From Planctomycetota bacterium (GTDB lineage: Bacteria; Planctomycetota; JAJSAM01; JAJVHW01): DNA of 64,000 nt. The notes beneath the pieces were generated by a model. It saw only the letters and a program-made list of their open reading frames with translations. It searched no databases and was not told the DNA's origin. The position numbers and the translations under genes were made by a program. The stretch covers positions 591 to 64,590 of the forward strand of contig JAJVHW010000002.1 in assembly GCA_022072415.1 (NCBI GenBank), written 5' to 3'. Positions 1 to 12,842 of this stretch are shown piece by piece; the first letter of the stretch is position 1; each line of letters starts with the position of its first letter.

Positions 1-141
1 GCCCCATCGGGCCGCGCTCGTGTAGAGGTCCGTCTGCGCGAGGAGCAGCGCGTCGTCCCAGAGGAACACGCCGCGGAGACCCGGCGCCTGCGCCGCAAAG
101 GAGAGGGCCGCGACGGCCATGCAGAGGAGGGCGCGATGCAC
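1..141 (-). CDS. N-terminal part of a membrane protein gene running off the left edge (partial)
   Basis: The minus frame is open from 141 to 1: (V)HRALLCMAVAALSFAAQAPGLRGVFLWDDALLLAQTDLYTSAARWG. It has a hydrophobic leader. The start is GTG 141 or ATG 120. It is missing from the ORF track only because no stop lies inside the window. Confidence 0.3.
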   Translation of the reverse strand, partial: MHRALLCMAVAALSFAAQAPGLRGVFLWDDALLLAQTDLYTSAARWG

Positions 142-229
142 GCCGGACAAGCATCGCACGCCCACGCGGCACACGTCTTTTTCTCGCCCGGCGTGGTATC
201 GTTTGCGACCCCCGAGGAGGACTTGCCCC

Positions 230-505
230 ATGGAAACCGTCGTCCGCACCGAGGACTTCCGCAACGAGGATCAGCGCAAGTCCGACCGCAAGCTGGTCGG
301 CACCTGGTGGCGCTGCCCGAGCCACGGCGTGACCGACGTTCCGATCCTCCTCTCGAGCGTGGCCTATTGCCCCGCCGACGACTGCGCCTCCCCCGTCAAG
401 CTCGTCCACTCCGCGATCAACGACCCCAACGCCAACGCCCAGGCCCGCAGCGTGTGGCGCAAGTCGAGCGACATGTTCCTCCCCCCCGCGCCCGAGGCCG
501 AGTAG
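230..505 (+). CDS. small hypothetical protein (91 aa) with zinc-ribbon-like Cys/His spacing
   Basis: ATG 230 sits 8 nt after GAGGAGGA (214-221). Composition is balanced (METVVRTEDFRNEDQRK...WWRCPSHG...YCPADDC), unlike the R/P-rich 5' extension of ORF 119..505. Confidence 0.5.
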   Translation: METVVRTEDFRNEDQRKSDRKLVGTWWRCPSHGVTDVPILLSSVAYCPADDCASPVKLVHSAINDPNANAQARSVWRKSSDMFLPPAPEAE

Positions 506-511
506 CCCGAC

Positions 512-641
512 CGCCGTTCGACGCTGCCGCTCCACGCCGCCGCTCGACGCTGCCGCTCAACGCCGCCGCTCGACGCCACCGCTCGACGCTGCCGTTCCGC
601 GCTGCCGCTCGACGCTACCGGTCGAAGCTGCCGGTCCCCAC
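512..641. repeat. tandem repeat, ten units of 13 bp (consensus YGCCGCTCGACGC)
   Basis: Units were read directly: cgccgttcgacgc, tgccgctccacgc, cgccgctcgacgc, tgccgctcaacgc, cgccgctcgacgc, caccgctcgacgc, tgccgttccgcgc, tgccgctcgacgc, taccggtcgaagc, tgccggtccccac. The period is not a multiple of 3. The array starts 7 nt after the stop of the 230..505 gene. Confidence 0.9.
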
Positions 642-889
642 CGCCGCCGCGGCCTCCGCTCCAGCCGCCGCGACCGACCGGCTGTCCGCCTGCGCGTCCG
701 CCCGCCGCGCAGCCTGCCGCCGTCGCACGTCCGACGACCCCAGCTCCGCTTCGCCGCGCCGTCCTCCGCGACTTGCCCGGACGGCACCCCATTCCTTGCC
801 GTCCCCGCACGCCGCTCCTAGGCTTCCCCGCTTCGCGCGCCGGACCCAGCCCGCCTCACCGCAGGCCCCCTCCGTCCGCGCCCAGCAAC

Positions 890-966
890 TCCCCGGTAGC
901 TCAGTTGGTTAGAGCGGCTGACTGTTAATCAGTAGGTCGAAGGTTCGAGTCCTTCCCGGGGAGCCA
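890..966 (+). tRNA. tRNA-Asn (anticodon GUU), CCA encoded
   Basis: A cloverleaf was drawn by hand. Acceptor is TCCCCGG/CCGGGGA and the D arm is GCTC..GAGC. The anticodon stem is GCTGA/TCAGT with loop CTGTTAA. The T arm is GAAGG-TTCGAGT-CCTTC, followed by discriminator G and CCA. Confidence 0.95.
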
Positions 967-1114
967 ACCTCGCTGGCGTCGGAAGACGACGCGCGAGACG
1001 TTAACGCTCGCCCCGTTCCTGAGAGGCCGAGCGCCCCGCGCGTAACGCGCTCCCCCGCCGCGACTTCCGTGCGCCCGCCGTCGCGCCCGCGTTTCTCGGT
1101 TCCGAACCGGAGAA

Positions 1115-1139
1115 GATGGTCAGCAACCGTTACCCCCGG
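1115..1139. other. perfect palindrome/hairpin AACCGTTACCCC-c-GGGGTAACGGTT inside arm A1
   Basis: The 12-nt arms are exactly complementary. The same arms occur at 3654..3681 with a different centre (GGGG). Confidence 0.85.
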
Positions 1140-1234
1140 GGTAACGGTTGGGGTCCCGGATCTCTCGGTCTCGAACTCTCCGATTCTCGCGTTTCAGAAC
1201 GGGCTTGTTTAACGCTCCGGAGACATCCTGGGTC

Positions 1235-1257
1235 CCATCTTCCGGCGTTTCGAACTC
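1235..1257 (+). repeat. 23-bp core CCATCTTCCGGCGTTTCGAACTC, copy 1
   Basis: An exact 23-mer present four times, all in the same orientation. Confidence 0.95.
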
Positions 1258-1306
1258 GCGATGCCGCGACTTCGTCGCGCCGGTGGCACTAGACTCGCGA
1301 AGGAGC

Positions 1307-1834
1307 ATGCCGACGACGACCGATCCGATCGACGCCTTCGCCGACACGTGCGAACGCTTCCTCGCCCTCTGCACCGACGACGCGCGACCCGAGGTCGAGC
1401 GCATGTGGTCGCTTCGCTCCACGTTGGGAGAGCTGATCGCTGGAATGGACCGGTTGCCGGTGTACACGGAGCCGTATGACCACGACGAGTCCCCGACGTA
1501 CGAGGAGATCCGTCGCCGCGTCGGCCCCCGCTATCCGTCGCTCGGCTACTACCACGATGTGCTGAACCTGCTCGCAGTCGGTGATCCTCCCGACACAGCC
1601 ATCGGCGACGCGATCGACGATCTGGTGGACACCTACCGGGAGTTGGCGTGCGGCTTGCGGCTCCTGCGCGACGGCAGCCGACGCGAGGCTGTCGGTCACT
1701 GGCGCCACGGGTTCTACTCACACTGGGGCAGCCACGCACTCGGAGCGGCGCGTGCGATCCACGAGCAGTTGCAGAAGTCAGGTTGGCTCGCGTCAGAAGG
1801 CGACGCACCGGGCACGCCGCGTTCACTCGGATAG
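1307..1834 (+). CDS. DUF5063-like protein (cargo 1)
   Basis: The C-terminal half reads DAIDDLVDTYRELACGL...WRHGFYSHWGSHALGAARAIH. This matches my memory of the DUF5063 pattern (DDLADIY.DL ... W..HWG.H...ALRALH). ATG 1307 has GGAG immediately upstream, which is unusually close spacing. Confidence 0.55.
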   Translation: MPTTTDPIDAFADTCERFLALCTDDARPEVERMWSLRSTLGELIAGMDRLPVYTEPYDHDESPTYEEIRRRVGPRYPSLGYYHDVLNLLAVGDPPDTAIGDAIDDLVDTYRELACGLRLLRDGSRREAVGHWRHGFYSHWGSHALGAARAIHEQLQKSGWLASEGDAPGTPRSLG

Positions 1835-1872
1835 TTCGATCCTCCGTAGGGCCACGGGCGCTCGGCCCACGT

Positions 1873-2052
1873 CGTCAACTCCGCACGGTCAGTTCGGCGA
1901 CTCCCGATTCCGGACCATCTTCCGGCGTTTCGAACTCCGTTCCGGTATCTGAAGAGTGGGGCCTTCGCGGCGAGTCGCCGCGGGAGCCCCGAACACCAGA
2001 CGACGGACCGGCCGGGACGCCCGGAGGACGCCGTGGGTGCCGCGCGAGCGGA
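1873..2052 (+). repeat. arm B copy 1 (about 175 bp, non-coding)
   Basis: It aligns with 6073..6245. The two are identical through the core and the next 20 nt (cgttccggtatctgaagagt) and patchy elsewhere. Confidence 0.85.
1915..1937 (+). repeat. 23-bp core, copy 2
   Basis: Exact copy of CCATCTTCCGGCGTTTCGAACTC. Confidence 0.95.
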
Positions 2053-2134
2053 CCTGCGTCGTCGTTCCCCGCCAGGTCCGTCCCGAGCGACACCCGCACG
2101 CCCTCCCGCGCCCCGGCGCCGACCGGAGGACGCA

Positions 2135-2383
2135 GTGCAGGACCCCTTCGATCCCGACGCGATGACGCCCGAGCAGCGGGAGCGCGAACTCTCCGCGCTG
2201 CTCGCGACGGGCTACCTGCGCCACCGCGCCCTGCGCGCTCCGGGTGCAGCAAGTACCTGCGTGCCGCGGCCGGACGACGGCGACCGTCAACGCGAGAAAG
2301 AAGTGGATGGTGTCGCGGAACAGAGCGTCCATGTGCCCCACGCCGACGGGAGCGCCCCGCCGGCCGAACAGGAGGCACGGTGA
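2135..2383 (+). CDS. small hypothetical protein translationally coupled to the DUF2924 gene
   Basis: GTG 2135 lies 4 nt after GGAGGA (2125-2130). The stop TGA overlaps ATG 2383 (TGATG). The segment DPFDPDAMTPEQRERELSALLATGYLRHRA looks protein-like. The start could instead be ATG 2162. Confidence 0.4.
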   Translation: MQDPFDPDAMTPEQRERELSALLATGYLRHRALRAPGAASTCVPRPDDGDRQREKEVDGVAEQSVHVPHADGSAPPAEQEAR

Positions 2384-3147
2384 TGAAGACGACGATGGCC
2401 GCCCAGATCGCGGCCCTCCGGGACATGACGGTCGCGGACCTCCGCGAGAAGTACCACGAGGTCTTCGGCGAAGAGACGCGCTCGCGCCACAAGGACTTCC
2501 TCTGGAAGCGGATCGCGTGGCGGCTTCAGGCCAACGAGGAGGGCGACCTCTCCGAGCGCGCGAAGCGCCGCGCCGCGGAGCTCGCCAACGACGCCGACCT
2601 CCGGGTCCGCGTCCCCTCCGGAGCGTTCGACGCCGGGCTCCCCGCCCACGGGCGGACGCGGACGCACGAGTTCTCCCGGCCGCACGACCCTCGGCTCCCG
2701 ATGCCCGGCACGGTGCTGACGCGGGAGTTCAAGGGTCGGCTCCTCCGCGTCACGGTGCTCGACGGCGGCTTCGAGTTCGAGGGCGCGGTCCACCGCTCCC
2801 TGTCCGCGATCGCGGAACTCGTGACCGGGACCCGCTGGAACGGCTTCCTCTTCTTCGGACTCACGAAGTCGCAGGCGACGAAACCGCGCGCCGCGGGCGG
2901 TGAGCTACTCCTCGAACAGCGCCCGCGGCAGCCCGCTCTGGCGGATGATCGACTGGAGCGTGCCGATCCGGACCTAGCGGTGCTCCGGCACGGGCACAGT
3001 CGTCGTCCCGGCTGCGGTCCGTCGCTGCATCACGACGTGACTGCCGCGCTGCCGGACCTCGACGAAGCCGGCACTCGCGCGGATCCTGCAGACGTCGCGC
3101 CCCGAGAGGACGCGAAGCCTACCCAACGGTCGCCTCGAACCTCGTGA
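2383..3147 (+). CDS. DUF2924 domain protein with an aberrant 3' extension
   Basis: ATG follows GGAGG (2371-2375). Recognisable motifs are AAQIAALRDMTVADLREKYHEVFG...FLWKRIAWRLQ...RSLSAIAELVTGTRWNGFLFFGL. After FFGL the frame stays open for about 240 nt, running antisense through hicA/hicB. Confidence 0.6.
   Translation: MKTTMAAQIAALRDMTVADLREKYHEVFGEETRSRHKDFLWKRIAWRLQANEEGDLSERAKRRAAELANDADLRVRVPSGAFDAGLPAHGRTRTHEFSRPHDPRLPMPGTVLTREFKGRLLRVTVLDGGFEFEGAVHRSLSAIAELVTGTRWNGFLFFGLTKSQATKPRAAGGELLLEQRPRQPALADDRLERADPDLAVLRHGHSRRPGCGPSLHHDVTAALPDLDEAGTRADPADVAPREDAKPTQRSPRTS
2905..3126 (-). pseudogene. hicA: HicA toxin gene with an in-frame TAG at 2974-2976
   Basis: Translation is (TTG)GRLRVLSGRDVCRIRASAGFVEVRQRGSHVVMQRRTAAGTTTVPVPEHR*VRIGTLQSIIRQSGLPRALFEE. 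HicA family motifs lie on both sides of the stop. The TTG start overlaps the hicB stop (TTGGGTAG). Confidence 0.7.
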
Positions 3148-3343
3148 CGAAGACGTCCGTGCGGACGCGCCGCGCAACCTCCTCGGGGTCGGCGCACTCG
3201 AGGAAGAGCTCGACGGCCTCGCGGAGATTCGCGGTGGCCTCCTCGACCGTCGCGCCCTGGCTCGCCACGTCGAGTTCCGGGCAGAGGGCAACGTAGCCGT
3301 CGCCTTCCTTCTCGACGATCGCGGTGTAGGTGTGACGGGTCAC
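3119..3343 (-). CDS. hicB: HicB-family antitoxin
   Basis: Sequence is VTRHTYTAIVEKEGDGYVALCPELDVASQGATVEEATANLREAVELFLE. It is upstream of and overlapping hicA. A GTG start at 3343 is assumed. Confidence 0.75.
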   Translation of the reverse strand: MTRHTYTAIVEKEGDGYVALCPELDVASQGATVEEATANLREAVELFLECADPEEVARRVRTDVFVTRFEATVG

Positions 3344-3653
3344 GAGGGGCTCGTTCGGTCCGACGATGGATCTCGCGGAAGCGTACCAGACCGGGCGGAT
3401 GCAGCGTGCGCCCGGACGCACCGGTCGCACTTGCACGGCGCGGCGGCGCGAGTGGTTCGTACCGGGGTTGCCGTCGGGGAGCCGACCTCGCTGGCGTCGG
3501 AAGACGACGCGCGAGACGTTCACGCTCGCCCCGTTCCTGAGACGCCGAGCGCCCCGCGCGTAACGCGCTCCCCCGCCGCAACTTCCGCGCGCACAGTGTC
3601 GCGACGGCGTTGCGCCCGCGATTCTCGGTTCCGAACCGGAGAAGATGGTCGGC

Positions 3654-3681
3654 AACCGTTACCCCGGGGGGGGTAACGGTT
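3654..3681. other. hairpin AACCGTTACCCC-gggg-GGGGTAACGGTT inside arm A2
   Basis: It has the same 12-nt arms as 1115..1139 with a different loop. Confidence 0.85.
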
Positions 3682-3766
3682 GGGGTCCCGGATCTCGCGG
3701 TCTCGAACTCTCCGATTCTCGCGTTTCAGAATGGGCTTGTTTGACGCTCCGGAGACATCCGGGGTC

Positions 3767-3789
3767 CCATCTTCCGGCGTTTCGAACTC
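3767..3789 (+). repeat. 23-bp core, copy 3
   Basis: Exact copy. Confidence 0.95.
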
Positions 3790-4239
3790 GGGCGGCCGGC
3801 ACGGACGAGACGTCGGCGACGCACGTGCCCACGCTCCTGGCGAGAAGGTGACACGTCCGGTCGGGCCGCTCGTCCGCTAGCATCCTCTCCAGCTGCGATC
3901 GTTTCGTACCGGACTGCGTGGAGGACGACGTGAGCAACTCGGAGGATCTGCTTCAGCGGACGTACGCAGCGCGTGACGCGTTCTGGAAGGAGTGGGGCGA
4001 CGTTGACCCTGACGTACTCGCGCCGCTCATCAGTCCCGCGTTCATGGGCGGTCCGAAGTGGCCGAACCTCCGGCAGGCGCTCGCGACGGTTAGACGGGGT
4101 TCGCTCACTCTGCTCGCGAGCAACGGCCTCTCCGACCCCTTCGACGACGAGGACCCACCGACACAGCAAGGATTCGGACTCGAGTTCTTCGCCGTCACGA
4201 AGGACGAGGTCCCCTCACCGGCTACTGCGTCGTGGTTGT

Positions 4240-5647
4240 GGGGTACGGTCAAGAGTTGTGGACGGCGACCCCGGAACGAAGTGCGGCGTACCCTTGGTGC
4301 CTTGTGCAAACGAGGCCACCAGAACGCCCCTACACGGGGCAGGAGTACGCCGCATGTCCAAGGGTACGGAACAGGGAGCCCAGGCGCCAGCAGCCACGGT
4401 CGTCCGCGACGTGCTGACCGAGATCGCGCGAGCCGGTGCGAAGAAGATGCTCGCGCAGGCGCTTGAGGACGAGGTCGCCGCGTACATCGCGGCGGCCGTC
4501 GAGGAGCGGGACGAGCGGGGCCGGCGGCTCGTCGTGCGCAACGGCCACGCGCAGGAGCGCGAGGTCCAGACGGGCCTGGGCCCGGTGCCGGTGCGGGCCC
4601 CGCGCGTACGCGACGGCCGGACGGACGGGGTCGGCGAGCCCGTGCGCTACACGAGCAAGATCCTGCCGCCGTACCTGCGCAAGACGCGCTCGGTCGAGGA
4701 ACTGCTCCCGTGGCTGTACCTCTCGGGCGTTTCGACGAACGGCTTCCAGCAGGCGCTGGCGTCGATCTTCGGGCCGGACGCGCCGGGTCTGTCGTCGCGG
4801 ACGATCGTGCGGCTCAAGGAGGTGTGGGAGGAGGAGTACGAGGCGTGGACCAGGCGGCCGCTCGGATCGAAGCGGTACGTGTACCTGTGGGTCGACGGCG
4901 TCCACGTGAACGTGCGCCTGACCGGCGAGCGGGCCTGCATCCTCGTCGTGATCGGCGCGACCTCGGACGGCGAGAAGGTGCTGCTCGCGGTCCACGACGG
5001 GGTGCGCGAGAGCGAGGAGTCGTGGAAGGACGTGCTGCTCTCGCTGCGCGACCGCGGGATGACGGTCGCCCCTGAACTCGCGATCGGCGACGGCGCGCTC
5101 GGCTTCTGGGCCGCCCTCCCGAAGGTCTTCCCGACGACGCGTGAGCAGCGGTGCTGGGTCCACAAGACGGCGAACGTCCTGAACAAGCTCCCGAAGACGC
5201 TGCACCCGGAGGCGAAGCGCCACCTGCATCAGATCTGGATGGCCGAGAGCCGGGCGAACGCGTTGCGCGCCCTCGCGAGCTTCGGCGAGTTGTTCCGCGC
5301 GAAGTACCCGAAGGCCGTCGAGTGCGTCGAGAAGGACAGGGACGCGCTGCTCGCCTTCTACGACTTCCCGGCCGAGCACTGGAAGCATCTGCGGACCACG
5401 AACCCGATCGAGTCCACCTTCTCCACCGTGAGGCTGCGGACCGACCGGACCAAGGGGTCCGGCTCACGCATCGCCTGCCTCACGATGGTCTTCAAGCTGT
5501 GCCAGTCGGCCGAGCGCTCGTGGCGCCGGCTCGACGCTGTCGAACGCCTCGGCGACCTCGTCCAGGGCGTCCGCTTCCAGGACGGCATCAAGGTCGCCGC
5601 ATGAACGACCCGCGCCGGCCGCCGTCCACAACTCTTGACCGTACCCC
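4240..5647 (+). mobile_element. IS256-family insertion sequence (1408 bp)
   Basis: Terminal inverted repeats GGGGTACGGTCAAGAGTTGTGGACGGC lie at 4240-4266 and, reverse-complemented, at 5621-5647. A 9-bp direct target duplication CGTGGTTGT lies at 4231-4239 and 5648-5656. Confidence 0.9.
4354..5604 (+). CDS. IS256-family (Mutator-like DDE) transposase
   Basis: 416 aa. AGGAG lies 8 nt upstream. Family-typical blocks are YLWVDGVHVNVR, ILVVIGATSDGEKVLLAV, CWVHKTANVLNKLPK and TTNPIESTFSTVRLR. Confidence 0.9.
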   Translation: MSKGTEQGAQAPAATVVRDVLTEIARAGAKKMLAQALEDEVAAYIAAAVEERDERGRRLVVRNGHAQEREVQTGLGPVPVRAPRVRDGRTDGVGEPVRYTSKILPPYLRKTRSVEELLPWLYLSGVSTNGFQQALASIFGPDAPGLSSRTIVRLKEVWEEEYEAWTRRPLGSKRYVYLWVDGVHVNVRLTGERACILVVIGATSDGEKVLLAVHDGVRESEESWKDVLLSLRDRGMTVAPELAIGDGALGFWAALPKVFPTTREQRCWVHKTANVLNKLPKTLHPEAKRHLHQIWMAESRANALRALASFGELFRAKYPKAVECVEKDRDALLAFYDFPAEHWKHLRTTNPIESTFSTVRLRTDRTKGSGSRIACLTMVFKLCQSAERSWRRLDAVERLGDLVQGVRFQDGIKVAA

Positions 5648-6072
5648 CGTGGTTGTACGCGCTGCTATGGCAGGTCTGCTTGAATGCGGCGGACACCGGG
5701 AAGTTCCGCGCCATGATCGATCAGTACGGGGTGATCGTGACCGAGCTCTACGACGTGAACGTCCCCGATACCTGGAAAAACTCGGAGGGTCGCGTGGGTG
5801 TCATCCTCGGGCTCAGCGAGGCGAGCGCGTCCGGCGTGCCATCGGAGGTCGTGCTCCCGCTTGAGCCGGTCCGCGTCGTGAACGTGAAGCTCCTGACGCT
5901 TGCGGAGCTGGAGTACGCCGCAAAGCACGGCGCCGAGGGCCGCGCGGAGCTCGCGCGTCGCTTCCAGTCGACCCCAGGGGCTCAGCGATCCAGCCTGACA
6001 CGGCCCTCCGTGATCTGACCCCCGGACTAGCCACTGGACGCGACGGGCGCGCGGGCGGCCGGAGTTCCTCCG

Positions 6073-6245
6073 CGTCAACCCGGTCGGCTCAGTTCGGCAA
6101 CTTCGTGTCTGGTCCCCCATCTTCCGGCGTTTCGAACTCCGTTCCGGTATCTGAAGAGTAGGACCCCCGAAGCGAGTCGCCGCGAGGGCCGCGATCACCG
6201 GAGAACGGACCGGCCGGGACGCCCGAAGGGTGCCGCGAACCGAGG
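6073..6245 (+). repeat. arm B copy 2, ending about 5-10 nt from the stop of the next chromosomal gene
   Basis: See 1873..2052. Confidence 0.85.
6117..6139 (+). repeat. 23-bp core, copy 4
   Basis: Exact copy. Confidence 0.95.
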
Positions 6246-6254
6246 GTACGAGCC

Positions 6255-7412
6255 TCAACGCCGGGCGACGAGCACGACGATCTTCTTCGAGTACCCGCTG
6301 AGCACGATCTCGTCCGCGTCGTTGCCGGGGACGAGGTCCGCGGCGATCTGCGTGTGGCCGCGGCCGCTGTCGCGGAAGATCGTGACCGGGTCGTACCCGG
6401 CTTCGCCCTCGACGAGCAGGCGGCAGAGCGCGTGGAAGCCGTAGAGCGCAAGCGGCGCGTCGCCGCCGCGCGTGCCCGGCAGCGGGAAACGGCCGGTGAC
6501 GATGCCGCGAAGGCCGCTGGACTTCCCCTCCTCGTCGATCACGTCGAACTTCCAGCCGCCTGCGCCGTCCCTGACGAAGTGCTGGACGCGGCCCCAGTAG
6601 CCGCACGCGTACGCGCCGCTCGCTTCGTCGACGCAGACGCGGCCGTAGCCGCCCTCCTCCTGATGGACGACCTTCGCGGAACCGGGCCGGTCGAGGTCCG
6701 CGTAGACGACGTCGCCTCCGGCGACCACGGCGAACGCCTCGTGCGGCGCGCGCCCGGCCGGGTCGCGGAGGATCACGACGTCCTTCATCCGGGGACGCGG
6801 GTCCTTCGGCTGCGGGTCGGCGAACGTCCGAGGTCCGCCGTAGGCGAGCGACGAGGTCCAGGTGCCGCCGGCGTGCGGCGTCAGGACGTGCAGTTCGTTG
6901 GCGTAGGTCGCCGCGACGAGGCGCACCGGCCCGCCGGGCGTCGCGGGAGGAACGGCCGCGATCCCGTGGACGTACGCCCCGGCGTCGAAGATGCGCCTCG
7001 CGCGCCAGCCGCCGCCGGCCTTCACCACCTGGACGACGTTGCCGCCGACTCCGTCCTGCCCCGGCTCGTAGCAGCCGGCGTAGATCTCCTCCCCCGGCAC
7101 CTCCGGGTCCGCGTCGGCGATGCAGAGTCCCGTCATCTCGCTGTGGTTCTCGTAGATCACCGCCGCCGCGGGCGCGACGCCGCCGTGGAACGCGACGTGG
7201 ACCATGTGTCCCGCCTGGTCCACACCGACGATCTGGAGATCCGGGTCCGACGAGTCGGGGCGCCCGACCTTCACCGTCTCGAAGCCCGAGTCGCCTTCCC
7301 ACACGACGACCGGCTCCCAGCGGACGCGGGCGGCGGACGTCGCCGCGGGAGTTGCACAGGCGCCGAACGCGAGGACCGGCGCGACGAGGACGAGACTCCG
7401 GATGCGGTTCAT
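6255..7412 (-). CDS. lipoprotein, probable beta-propeller (FG-GAP/VCBS-like) fold
   Basis: GAAGGAGG lies upstream. The signal plus lipobox is LVAPVLAFGAC. Repeated G-rich strand motifs are present. Confidence 0.6.
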   Translation of the reverse strand: MNRIRSLVLVAPVLAFGACATPAATSAARVRWEPVVVWEGDSGFETVKVGRPDSSDPDLQIVGVDQAGHMVHVAFHGGVAPAAAVIYENHSEMTGLCIADADPEVPGEEIYAGCYEPGQDGVGGNVVQVVKAGGGWRARRIFDAGAYVHGIAAVPPATPGGPVRLVAATYANELHVLTPHAGGTWTSSLAYGGPRTFADPQPKDPRPRMKDVVILRDPAGRAPHEAFAVVAGGDVVYADLDRPGSAKVVHQEEGGYGRVCVDEASGAYACGYWGRVQHFVRDGAGGWKFDVIDEEGKSSGLRGIVTGRFPLPGTRGGDAPLALYGFHALCRLLVEGEAGYDPVTIFRDSGRGHTQIAADLVPGNDADEIVLSGYSKKIVVLVARR

Positions 7413-10135: not shown

Positions 10136-12288
10136 CACCACCTCATCGTGTAGCCCGCGGAGACGTAGTACGCCCGGCCCGGCGCACCCCAGATGCCCTG
10201 GCTGTTCCGGAAGAAGTACTCCTCGTCGAAGACGTTCGTGATGCCGGCCGAGATCTGGAAGCCGGTGCCGTCCTCCTTCTCGTGCCAGCCGATCGAGACG
10301 TCCCACAGCGTGTACGCGGGGTTCATGCCCTCCGTGCCGGTGGAGTTCGGCTTCGTGAAGTTCTCCTGCTGCGCGAACGAGGAGCCGGCCGACGAGCCGT
10401 CGGCGCGGGCCCAGAAACCGTTCGACGCCTCGTACGACACGCCCCAGCTCCGGAGCCGCCGCGGCGAGTACGGCGTGTCGTTGCCCTTGAACGGCCCCGT
10501 CTCGAACACCGACTCCTGGTTCGTCGCCGTGACGTAGGCCGTGAGCCCGCGGAAGTCCTCCGACATCGCGGCGAAGTCGTACGAGAGCTCGCACTCGATG
10601 CCGTCGTTCACCGTCCTTCCTGCGTTCTGGAAGACGGTCACGCCGCCCGCGCCGGTCACCGCGATCGCCTGGTCGGTGAACACGTTGCGGAACGCCGTCG
10701 CCGACGCCGAGAAGCCCCAGTGCCCGCGCGTCCGCATGCCGATCTCGCGCGAGGTCGCGAACTCCGGCTGCACCTCGTTGCCCGCGTTGGCCGCGGGGTC
10801 GAAGTTGTCGTAGTACGGCGTGCGGAAGCTCTTCTGCCGGCCGACGAAGAGCGCTGTGCGCGGCAGGCACGTCCACGCGATGCTCGTGGCAGGGAGGCGG
10901 ACCGTGTAGTCCTCCACGCGGCCCTCGGGACCGCCCGGGATCCGGTTCGTCGACGACATCTGGATCGACTCGAGCCGGTATCCCAGCGTCGCCTGCACGT
11001 TCTCGACGAGGTCGATCGTGTCCTCGTTGAAGAGCGCGACTCCCCGGCCGTCGAACGTGGCGTGCTGCGTCTGCGTGGCCGGCCCGGCTCCCGCGGCGAG
11101 CGGCACGCGCACCCAGTCGTTCTCGGCGTCCTCATGCGTCGTCTGGACGATGTGCGAGAAGCGGTGCGTCATCCCGGCGATCGTCGTGTCCCACGAGTAC
11201 CGCGCCTGGCCCCAGAACGTCTGCGCGTACGTCGGCTTCGACTCGAGCCCGCTGAACGGCGGAGAGCCCGGACGCGAGATGCGGACTTCGCTCGTGACGT
11301 CGGACCACATCATCGTCAGGTCGAACCGGCTCGAGCGGCCGAAGTCGTGGGTCCACGTCCCCGCGTACATCGTGCGGTCGCCGTGCGAGTCGTCGAGCGG
11401 GCGCACCGTGCTCTCCCGATCGCGGTCATAGTCGGCCTGCGGTTCGCCGCCCGGGAGCGACGCGTCGATCAGGTAGCGGCCGACCGTGAAGAGCACCGCG
11501 TCGTCCGCATCCGCCTGCCAGCGGACGCGTCCGTAGAAGTCGCCGATGTCGAACTCGCCGCCGTCGCGATGGCCGTCGCCCCGCTTGTCCACCTGCACGA
11601 GGCTCACGCCGACCGGGCCCCAGGTGCCGCCGGCGTCGAGGACGACGGCCCGGTATCCGTCGCTCCCGAACTTCACGCGCGTGCTGGCCGTGGGCGTCTC
11701 CGGGATCGGCCGCGAGATGAGGTTCACGACCCCGCCCACCGAGTGCGATCCGAACCGCAGGGCCGCGCCGCCGCGGATGGAGTCGATCGTCCCGATGCGC
11801 TCCATCGAGACCGGGAAGAGGTCCTTGTCGTTGAGACCGTACGGCGCCATCGAGATCGGAAGACCGTCCACGAGCCAGCCGACGTAGCGGCCCCGCTGGG
11901 GCGAGAGGCCGCGGGAGCCGACGTTGAGGTACGCCTCGTTCCCCGTCGCCTGCGTGACGTACATGCCCGGCACGCGGCGGATCACGTCGCTCAGGTTCCC
12001 GCCCTGGTACTGCGCGACCGACTCGGCGTCGATCACGTCGCGGGCGCCGGCGTACATGAGCGGCACGCCGCCGCTGGCCGCCGTCACGACGATCTCGCCG
12101 CTTCCGACGTACGACTTCGCCTCGTCCTGTTCGACGAGGAGGTCCGCCGCTTCCTCCAGCGCCGACTTCGGCTTCGACGGAGTGTCCGGCTTCGTCTCTT
12201 CCGCGCGCGCGGAGGTCGCGGCGGCGACCCCCGCGACGGTGGTGAGCGCGGCGGCGAGCATGCGGCGGTTGCTTCGTGTCCTCTGCAA
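10135..12288 (-). CDS. TonB-dependent outer-membrane receptor
   Basis: 717 aa with a signal peptide. The plug motif is IRGGAALRFGSHSVGGVVNLISR. A beta-barrel repeat pattern is present, with an aromatic C-terminus ...YVSAGYTMRW. Confidence 0.85.
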   Translation of the reverse strand: MQRTRSNRRMLAAALTTVAGVAAATSARAEETKPDTPSKPKSALEEAADLLVEQDEAKSYVGSGEIVVTAASGGVPLMYAGARDVIDAESVAQYQGGNLSDVIRRVPGMYVTQATGNEAYLNVGSRGLSPQRGRYVGWLVDGLPISMAPYGLNDKDLFPVSMERIGTIDSIRGGAALRFGSHSVGGVVNLISRPIPETPTASTRVKFGSDGYRAVVLDAGGTWGPVGVSLVQVDKRGDGHRDGGEFDIGDFYGRVRWQADADDAVLFTVGRYLIDASLPGGEPQADYDRDRESTVRPLDDSHGDRTMYAGTWTHDFGRSSRFDLTMMWSDVTSEVRISRPGSPPFSGLESKPTYAQTFWGQARYSWDTTIAGMTHRFSHIVQTTHEDAENDWVRVPLAAGAGPATQTQHATFDGRGVALFNEDTIDLVENVQATLGYRLESIQMSSTNRIPGGPEGRVEDYTVRLPATSIAWTCLPRTALFVGRQKSFRTPYYDNFDPAANAGNEVQPEFATSREIGMRTRGHWGFSASATAFRNVFTDQAIAVTGAGGVTVFQNAGRTVNDGIECELSYDFAAMSEDFRGLTAYVTATNQESVFETGPFKGNDTPYSPRRLRSWGVSYEASNGFWARADGSSAGSSFAQQENFTKPNSTGTEGMNPAYTLWDVSIGWHEKEDGTGFQISAGITNVFDEEYFFRNSQGIWGAPGRAYYVSAGYTMRW

Positions 12289-12842
12289 GACGCACCTCCT
12301 TCTTCGCTGTTCATTTGCGCGAACGCCATGCCGCGTTCACTTCTGTGCCGCGGCCGTGACAGACGCGCGGCGAACCTCGTTCACCGATTCGGAGATGCAT
12401 CGCCGGAGATGCGGACGGATGCTTCGGCAAGCCGCGAAGACCGCGACGTCTCGGCCCTCCCGAACGCAGCGACCGTGCCGTCTTGCAGCACGGGAGCACG
12501 GAACGTGATCCCGAGATCGGCGGCGGCGCATCCCGGTTCATCCGATCGGTCGCCGCGCGACCGGCGCCGCGCCCCGCTCGCGTGTGACGTGCAGGTGACG
12601 ACGCGTGCGTGTGCGCGTCACCTTCTGCCGCGAGCCGCGTTTCGTGTGCGTCACGGGCAGAGATCCGCGAGCGCAGCAACTCCCGCCGCTCTGCCGATCG
12701 TCGGACGCGATGAACGCGCCTCTCACCTCGACGTGAGACGCAGTCTGCGCAGCGCGCCGCGCGGCGGGCCTCGAGGTGCCGTCGCTCTGCTTCGATCCGC
12801 GCGACGACCGGAGCCGCCCCGCCGCGGACGATGGTCGCAGGG

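Follow-up and report, generated by a model that had tools for sequence, protein, structure and literature searches.

The 64,000-nt stretch of Planctomycetota DNA analyzed here (hereafter the window) carries, directly downstream of a tRNA-Asn gene, two unrelated genes that are each enclosed by direct copies of a 23-bp core set within repeated arms, an arrangement that an earlier note on this DNA had read as cassette-like modules on a platform without a recombinase. Positions 958-6235 in all probability hold two decayed copies, in tandem, of a prophage-like element whose insertion site is the 3' end of tRNA-Asn, and the core is a discrete recombination point, or cargo hotspot, inside that element. 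As a whole, the evidence is best explained by decayed tandem elements whose core hotspot would be serviced by the element's own large serine recombinase (LSR), a reading to which a probability of roughly 0.55 is assigned. The family sample on which this rests comprises approximately eight lineages, all of them metagenome-assembled genomes (MAGs) or metagenome contigs; L-numbers designate the related loci compared with the window, and P-numbers the homologous proteins.

The 23-mer CCATCTTCCGGCGTTTCGAACTC occurs in exactly four copies, all on the + strand, at 1235, 1915, 3767, and 6117, with copies 1 and 2 bracketing a DUF5063 gene and copies 3 and 4 bracketing a SUFU-like gene; no extra copy with three or fewer mismatches is present in the 64 kb, and matches arose in 0/100 dinucleotide shuffles. 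Arm A is found at 957-1266 and 3475-3798 (92-95% identity), each copy opening with the final 8 nt of the tRNA (GGGGAGCC), and arm B at 1915-2033 and 6117-6235 (87% identity). The likeness of the two A arms (A1 and A2) breaks off 1 nt past the core, the two B arms (B1 and B2) are identical across the core and the next 20 nt, and patchy similarity extends over ~47 nt upstream of core copies 2 and 4. The layout set out in the earlier note, from the four positions to the sharp limits of the arms, is thereby confirmed.

Arm A, the core, and arm B together probably constitute a non-coding leader of ~0.6 kb with which a prophage-like integrative element starts at its left end. In L001, from another Planctomycetota MAG, tRNA-Asn is followed by arm A, a single core, and arm B without interruption; the tRNA-Asn sequence and the flanking genes are unlike those of the window, and the arms are therefore mobile DNA rather than local chromosome. 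A1 (967-1234) is 97.8% identical to L001:4184-4461 and A2 is 91% identical to L001, B1 is ~95% identical to L001 and 83-95% identical to other lineages, and a multi-lineage alignment of arm A shows conserved blocks. Arm B of L001 runs into a small open reading frame (ORF), a DUF2924 gene, and the N-terminus of a serine recombinase whose start overlaps the DUF2924 stop, and the same succession, ending in a recombinase of 520-527 amino acids (aa), recurs in L015, L016, L017, L023, L024, and L030. DUF2924 genes usually accompany LSR genes. The 520-527-aa protein combines Resolvase, Recombinase, and Zn_ribbon_recom domains (6e-42, 9e-14, and 1e-10, respectively, for L015:6356-7939), matches the PHROG integrase family phrog_95 at 2e-119, and is 45% identical to the recombinase of Acidithiobacillus phage AcaML1. 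Downstream of the LSR lie genes for a PHROG "recombinase" family protein and for QueC-like, sigma-like, primase-helicase (phrog_1829, 3e-182), and HNH proteins, and one such region (L015) is an IMG/VR provirus of 35.7 kb; no phage structural genes were found in the 10 kb of element sequence available. The insertion point is constant, the left junction falling between GGAGCC and A of tRNA-Asn in five genomes with differing tRNA sequences. The left end of an intact element would thus read arm A, core, arm B, small ORF, DUF2924, LSR, and phage replication genes. The recombinase-free orphan platform proposed earlier does not stand, as the arms appear to be the leader of an element whose intact relatives encode DUF2924 and the LSR just past arm B.

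A 145-147-aa gene that overlaps the LSR end (L015 7930-8370; PHROG 14161, "recombinase", 1e-17) is conserved in L016, L022, L023, and L030 as well, and because of it the recombination module may comprise four genes, namely the small ORF, DUF2924, the LSR, and this gene. The element also encodes a sigma-70-like protein (L015:12123-12740).

In the window, the features of the two elements are arranged as follows.

890-966, + strand: tRNA-Asn (GTT), called by ARAGORN and matched by Rfam tRNA at 74 bits
958-966: attL-like left junction of element 1, formed by the tRNA 3' end GGGGAGCC-A; the same junction between tRNA and arm A occurs in L001, L015, L022, and L023
967-1234, + strand: arm A1, 5' half of the non-coding leader
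1235-1257, + strand: core copy 1
1258-1914, + strand: cassette 1, consisting of a leader, the DUF5063 ORF (1307-1834), a unique 3' stretch, and the pre-core (~1868-1914)
1915-1937, + strand: core copy 2
1938-2134, + strand: arm B1, 3' half of the leader
2135-2383, + strand: conserved small ORF of 82 aa, which opens the recombinase operon
2384-2903, + strand: DUF2924 gene (Pfam E = 1.8e-42), stop codon deleted
2905-3125, - strand: pseudogene of a HicA toxin (Pfam HicA_toxin E = 5.9e-16), interrupted in frame by TAG at 2974-2976
3119-3345, - strand: HicB-like antitoxin, right-end cargo of element 1, adjoining HicA (weak Pfam UPF0150 and HicB_lk_antitox matches)
3448-3484, + strand: P arm of element 1 and start of A2, an attP-like junction (GCGAGTGGTTCGTACCGGGGTTGCCGTCGGGGAGCC followed by G)
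3485-3766, + strand: arm A2
3767-3789, + strand: core copy 3
3790-6116, + strand: cassette 2, with SUFU-like ORF pieces at 3918-4239 and 5657-6018 and the pre-core at ~6070-6116
4240-5647, + strand: IS256-family insertion sequence (IS), transposase at 4354-5604
6117-6139, + strand: core copy 4
6140-6235, + strand: arm B2, truncated (end of homology set by alignment)

Element 1 thus spans ~967-3483 and element 2 spans 3484-6235. The P arm GCGAGTGGTTCGTACCGGGGTTGCCGTCGGGGAGCC (3448-3483) lies directly left of A2; it also precedes arm A in L030, where phage-type genes and not a tRNA lie upstream, which identifies it as the element's right end. The P-arm copies of L030 and L087 agree at 21/21 nt and keep the same 36-nt spacing to GAGCC, and window 3448-3484 is probably an attP-like joint between tandem elements. 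The repetition of the arms in direct order within 2.5 kb would also be expected of a simple in-situ segmental duplication, yet A1 and B1 are nearer to L001 (97.8% and 95%) than to A2 and B2 (92-95% and 87%), so the copies represent two separate lineages. An alternative in which the 23-mer marks the end of an IS or transposon fares no better, given that the cargo is devoid of terminal inverted repeats and that the sole transposase belongs to a separate IS256-family insertion with its own repeats and target duplication. Both explanations, which the earlier note had named as fatal to its proposal, are refuted by the closeness to L001, by the attP-like junction between the copies, and by the empty sites and alternative cargos known elsewhere, and they retain only a vanishingly small probability.

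Element 1 probably keeps both of its ends, everything from the LSR start to the right-end HicAB module having been deleted: at a junction near 2900 (2880-2980), the end of DUF2924, its stop lost, is fused to the convergent 3' end of HicA. This module is assigned as a HicAB toxin-antitoxin pair from a HicA_toxin match beside a HicB-like gene, the HicB-like matches being weak. Element 2, which appears to derive from a different lineage and to be cut off after arm B, abuts a convergent chromosomal gene on the - strand (6255-7412). The recombinase that defines such elements is present in the relatives and is missing from the window because the gene has been deleted from both copies. That no tyrosine or serine recombinase is encoded in 1-7400, as observed previously, is correct and, for the element's LSR, holds across the window, since tblastn found neither this gene nor other element genes elsewhere in the 64 kb. 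With no LSR left in the window, present-day movement would therefore need a recombinase in trans. In this regard, the previously suggested "integrase-less mobilisable islets" come close to element 1, which has both att-type ends and no recombinase.

The same style of tandem decay is seen in L099, where two units lie at a degenerate tRNA-Asn. Each unit is preceded by the 3' half only of tRNA-Asn (813-882 and 12268-12327; anticodon stem to 3' end, with CTGTCAA in the loop), and ARAGORN makes zero tRNA calls in the contig; the tRNA segment that this lineage carries or duplicates is thus apparently much longer. L025 holds a decayed relative away from any tRNA (5300-5670), in which the core's right end and the tRNA-type end stand only 8 nt apart in GGGGAGCCAACGCTCCTCGAACTC; ~330 nt of unrelated DNA follow, arm B then begins exactly at CCGGTATG, and unrelated genes, rather than a recombinase, come after DUF2924.

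The evidence that the core is a hotspot comes from the comparison of empty and occupied leaders. Conservation in the leader peaks over the core and the opening ~11 nt of arm B, CCGGCGTTTCGAACTC followed by CGTTCCGGTAT being nearly invariant among five aligned lineages in which the rest of the leader is 75-90% identical. Empty A-core-B sites, predicted by the earlier note, are found in four lineages (L001, L022, L023, and L030), and the occupied sites, with their cargo and bracketing repeats, are as follows.

Window, element 1: DUF5063 gene; core on the left, pre-core and core on the right
Window, element 2: SUFU-like gene; core on the left, pre-core and core on the right
L015, L017, and L018: gene for a 211-aa protein; 88-bp repeat made of the 3' part of arm A and the core
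L099, unit 1: gene for a 224-aa leucine-rich repeat (LRR) lipoprotein; core on the left, pre-core and core on the right
L099, unit 2: gene for a 407-aa lipoprotein; core-like TACGAACTC on the left, degenerate arm B without a core on the right
L087 and L088: two-cassette array

Unrelated genes at the same point in L015 and L099, together with the array in L087, bear out the earlier idea of exchangeable cargo, and the varied cargos and empty sites support that of the core as the point of exchange. Modules bounded by direct repeats of the core are found in the window, L087, and L099. Across the family, the core is joined on its left to three kinds of flank (arm A, the ~50-nt pre-core, and the right-end P arm) and on its right to arm B and five different cargo leaders, and these boundaries are exact to within a few bases. 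The pre-core, which starts with CACGTCGTCAAC, is conserved after three unrelated cargos (DUF5063, SUFU, and LRR; z = 6-14 versus shuffles). The core beside arm B is always intact and left-hand cores are variable. In L087 and L088, the order is a variant of the arm A 3' part and core, three genes, a complete P arm, core, DUF5063, pre-core, core, and arm B, and the DUF5063 cassette is 87% identical to that of the window. Arm B of the window and of L088 has diverged equally (87%), and closer relatives of the window are empty (L001) or hold other cargo (L015), which argues for precise loss or replacement at the core. The cargo modules, six of six co-oriented with the recombinase operon, occupy the interval from the att junction to the integrase, a position typical of lysogenic-conversion genes.

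Homologues of the SUFU-like gene in L090-L093 (79%) share the ORF alone, cores being absent. At the locus of P0012 (JGI 3300050046; DUF2924 77% identical), a pair of co-oriented genes encoding 255 and 352 aa stops ~240 nt short of the small ORF, on its upstream side, and the locus may be another occupied site.

As regards the agent of exchange, the strongest single item for a site-specific process is the L087 junction, in which the place of arm A beside the core is taken by a full P arm. The LSR, possibly with DUF2924, would recombine sites having the core in common, and small modules without a recombinase would be gained, lost, or exchanged in the leader, a build-up that would parallel the accretion, between direct repeats, of ccr-less modules of the staphylococcal cassette chromosome (SCC) and of ssrA islands. 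This role of the LSR at core-sharing sites is given slightly less than an even chance. A bolder version, wherein the phage leader would contain a second, dedicated attachment site, made up of the core plus the beginning of arm B, at which the LSR, perhaps aided by DUF2924, captures, stacks, and releases small cassettes with a pre-core and core but no recombinase, is appreciably more doubtful.

The main and serious rival, of about the same standing as this bolder version and short of the LSR reading, is that the core is a conserved regulatory site (an operator, promoter, or RNA element) in the leader of the LSR operon, and that cargo "morons" move by short-homology or illegitimate recombination, with survivors only where an intact copy of the site stays on both sides. 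Precedents exist, as T4-type phages carry promoter/stem-loop cassettes and P2/P4-like prophages have variable hotspots; moron hotspots and T4-type cassettes share with the present case variable genes at a fixed point near att and the integrase as well as short conserved boundaries, but they arise by homologous or illegitimate recombination, whereas the L087 join of P arm and core looks site-specific. A regulatory role would suit the conservation of the core and the start of arm B above the remainder of the leader, the location of a core before each cargo and before the LSR operon, all co-oriented, the retention of the core next to arm B while left-hand cores decay, and the 88-bp leader repeat of L015, which looks like a duplication and not an att site. 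It would also suit the pairing of the 5' part of the core with upstream arm A, with compensatory changes, and the GAAC-type motifs repeated through the arms. Nevertheless, no further core copies occur in ~10 kb of L015, L016, L022, or L030, which rules out the repeat as a general phage promoter dispersed over the element; a scan for sigma-70 promoters and intrinsic terminators, of limited value in this phylum, found none; fold energies are no better than those of shuffles; in L087 a complete P arm meets the core exactly, the type of junction that site-specific enzymes make; and the same pre-core stands behind three unrelated cargos.

Several motifs within the leader pertain to this question. 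The 5' part of the core, CCATCTTCCGG (1235-1245), is complementary to CCGGAGAAGATGG in arm A (1108-1120), and both sides co-change in other lineages (A-U to C-G and C-G to U-A); the fold is not better than shuffles (z = -1.2). Arm A contains a hairpin or palindrome at 1124-1150 and 3654-3684 with the invariant centre ACCCC(C/G)GGGGT (alignment columns 98-127) and an outer stem with compensatory changes (CAACCGTTACCCC...GGGGTAACGGTTG in the window versus GCCAACCCC...GGGGTTGGGC in L015), a structure that may be a hairpin of RNA or DNA or else a symmetric operator. Approximately six motifs containing GAAC are spread along the leader (window 967-2040 and relatives), namely GTCGGAAGAC, TTCCGAACC, TCTCGAACTC, TTCAGAACG, TTTCGAACTC, and CCCGAACACC, and these may be binding sites of one protein. 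Folded as single sequences, neither arm A nor any of the cassette 3' ends did better than shuffles, and an Rfam search matched the tRNA alone.

An improbable alternative is that the cassettes are remnants of whole related elements, tandem or nested and trimmed by deletion, whose cargos are right-end accessory genes without independent mobility. Tandem decayed elements are indeed common (two in the window and two in L099), right ends bear accessory or toxin-antitoxin genes (HicAB in the window, a ribbon-helix-helix (RHH) gene and toxin in L087, and PemK in L099), and a genuine P arm ends the first cassette of L087. In addition, a SUFU-like gene without flanking cores, 73% identical to cargo 2, is found among the right-hand accessory genes of a related decayed element in L099 (9653-10324), where its neighbours are APH, methyltransferase, hydrolase, glyoxalase, and PemK/RHH genes. 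Such trimming would, however, need the same left deletion base (after GAACTC) in five independent cargos, would leave unexplained the empty sites that are otherwise 94-98% identical, and would have to accommodate a pre-core whose similarity to known P arms is not significant.

Servicing of the core by the element's LSR nonetheless has to be set against a number of opposing points. No recombination product, whether a circle or an excision junction, has been observed; the right ends of intact elements, including the attR junction, were not recovered; and sequence alone would not distinguish site-specific from homologous exchange across 23 identical bases. LSRs normally require merely 2-bp identity. 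The pre-core was considered as a mimic of the tRNA T-arm/P arm, and the core as a mimic of the start of arm A, and both candidates gave a permutation z of about 0; the att-arm resemblance having failed in this way, sequence evidence for LSR binding to the core is nil. Likewise, the 5' flanks of the cassettes share no recognizable half-site. The right-hand repeat of L015 copies the 3' part of arm A rather than the pre-core, which implies more than one route of occupancy, and mosaicism of the arms weakens tree arguments for precise loss or replacement at the core. Finally, the family is rare. A core 20-mer scanned against GTDB genomes, at one genome per species, gave one true match (L001) and five chance matches; in JGI metagenomes, the eight matches were all chance; and IMG/VR scans with core plus arm B, the conserved arm-B block, and the P arm returned only the already-known provirus of L015 or chance matches, such that the JGI and IMG/VR core scans added nothing to the approximately eight lineages. 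The core was not recognizable at 55 more distant DUF2924 loci in IMG/VR (40-65% identity), and the leader had zero matches in a cultured-phage collection.

Comparison with known systems bears first on the integron-like or rAID-like platform, with a tyrosine recombinase encoded elsewhere, that the earlier note had envisaged (rAID denoting the recombinase-associated orphan-immunity arrays of Bacteroidales). Integrons share with the present loci single-gene, co-oriented cassettes by a recombinase gene, a conserved 3' element, empty platforms, and arrays, if the two-cassette arrangement is counted as such. Nevertheless, no IntI-type tyrosine recombinase was found in the window region or at any related locus, intact loci instead having a serine recombinase operon beside arm B, and the arms move between hosts together with the LSR element. 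The cassette 3' ends contain no attC: the pre-core is conserved, but folds are no better than shuffles (z = 0.03 and 1.2), and the paired inverted repeats of R and L boxes are absent. Moreover, the cassettes lie upstream of, and co-oriented with, the serine recombinase operon, and the largest array holds two. The rAID comparison fails likewise on the absence of a tyrosine recombinase, and the SUFU-like gene is the only cargo from a proposed immunity family. A platform of either kind is accordingly very unlikely, and neither analogy drew evidence from any locus.

Some modules in the tandem or composite arrays of SCC have no recombinase gene of their own. Ccr moves SCC elements, whose flanking direct repeats include the integration site (PMC8772726). 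The present elements share with these the use of large serine recombinases, a target at the 3' end of a conserved gene, and flanking repeats, but the target is tRNA-Asn instead of rlmH, the carrier is phage-like, the partner is DUF2924 and not CcrA, the modules are single genes of 0.7-1.2 kb, and the 23-mer would be a second site inside the element's leader as opposed to the chromosomal target. Dehalococcoides ssrA islands have a CcrB-like LSR next to attL, are arranged in tandem, and are delimited by 20-bp direct repeats (McMurdie et al. 2011, PMC3146451), with a short conserved motif upstream of each repeat; 15 islands without an integration module have been read as cis-mobilisable elements joined by accretion (PMC3146451). 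The type of LSR, the tandem islands downstream of a small RNA gene, the direct repeats, the motif ahead of each repeat, and the module-less members all have counterparts here. The differences are that the ssrA repeat coincides with the target RNA gene's own 3' end and the islands measure several kb, whereas here the tRNA-type junction and the core are separate repeats, the core lying ~270 nt inside the element, outside tRNA-Asn, and not significantly like the tRNA-type junction. The accretion of cis-mobilisable elements (Pavlovic et al. 2004, cited in PMC3146451) offers a further likeness in tandem elements, attP-like junctions, internal deletions of recombination genes, and retained att-type ends, but concerns tyrosine integrases and integrative and conjugative elements (ICEs), with no internal cassette site described in what is cited of that work. 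No match was found to a described serine-recombinase-element system with an internal repeat-bracketed single-gene site and a cassette 3' element, and a text search of the literature on DUF2924 and "serine recombinase" gave nothing related. Tandem decayed LSR elements thus appear ordinary, and the internal repeat-bracketed cassette site would be the unmatched part.

If the LSR does service the core, the family would represent integron-like cassette capture built on another recombinase family, inside a temperate phage, and would explain how small accessory genes (SUFU-like, DUF5063, lipoproteins, and toxin-antitoxin pairs) move between phages and hosts in a poorly studied phylum; short, defined LSR sites would also be of practical interest as landing pads for genome engineering. 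Read conservatively, the findings indicate that tandem integrative elements can, on decaying, leave behind a repeat-bracketed module that looks like an "orphan", that closely related elements of this family differ in cargo at one hotspot, and that mini-elements without a recombinase but with both ends may remain mobilisable in trans.

Pfam assigns cargo 1 (1307-1834) to DUF5063 (E = 7e-13); an exact look-up of its protein gave nothing, although an identical NCBI protein exists (P0121). Cargo 2 itself has zero Pfam matches; its homologues are annotated "suppressor of fused domain protein", with PF05076 in some, and the family has been proposed to act in immunity. PADLOC and PDB sequence searches did not reveal cargo functions, with zero PADLOC matches. 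The SUFU-like gene is split by the IS256-family insertion, and upon removal of the IS its pieces join in frame to encode 227 aa. The insertion is placed in this family by its transposase (Pfam Transposase_mut, Mutator-type, E = 6.8e-64), its inverted repeats (4240-4270 and 5617-5647; 31 nt, 97% complementary), and a 9-bp target duplication (cgtggttgt at 4231-4239 and 5648-5656). The DUF2924 protein of the window is 95% identical to P0001, and the small ORF, for which family searches gave zero matches, is conserved in L001, L015, L022, L023, L025, L030, and L099. Farther upstream, window 485-680 holds a 13-nt unit (consensus near CCGCCGCTCGACG) repeated ~10-12 times in tandem between a 91-aa gene and tRNA-Asn; in L001, L015, and L023, the interval between the homologue of the 91-aa gene and the tRNA is filled by a DAO-family oxidoreductase gene.

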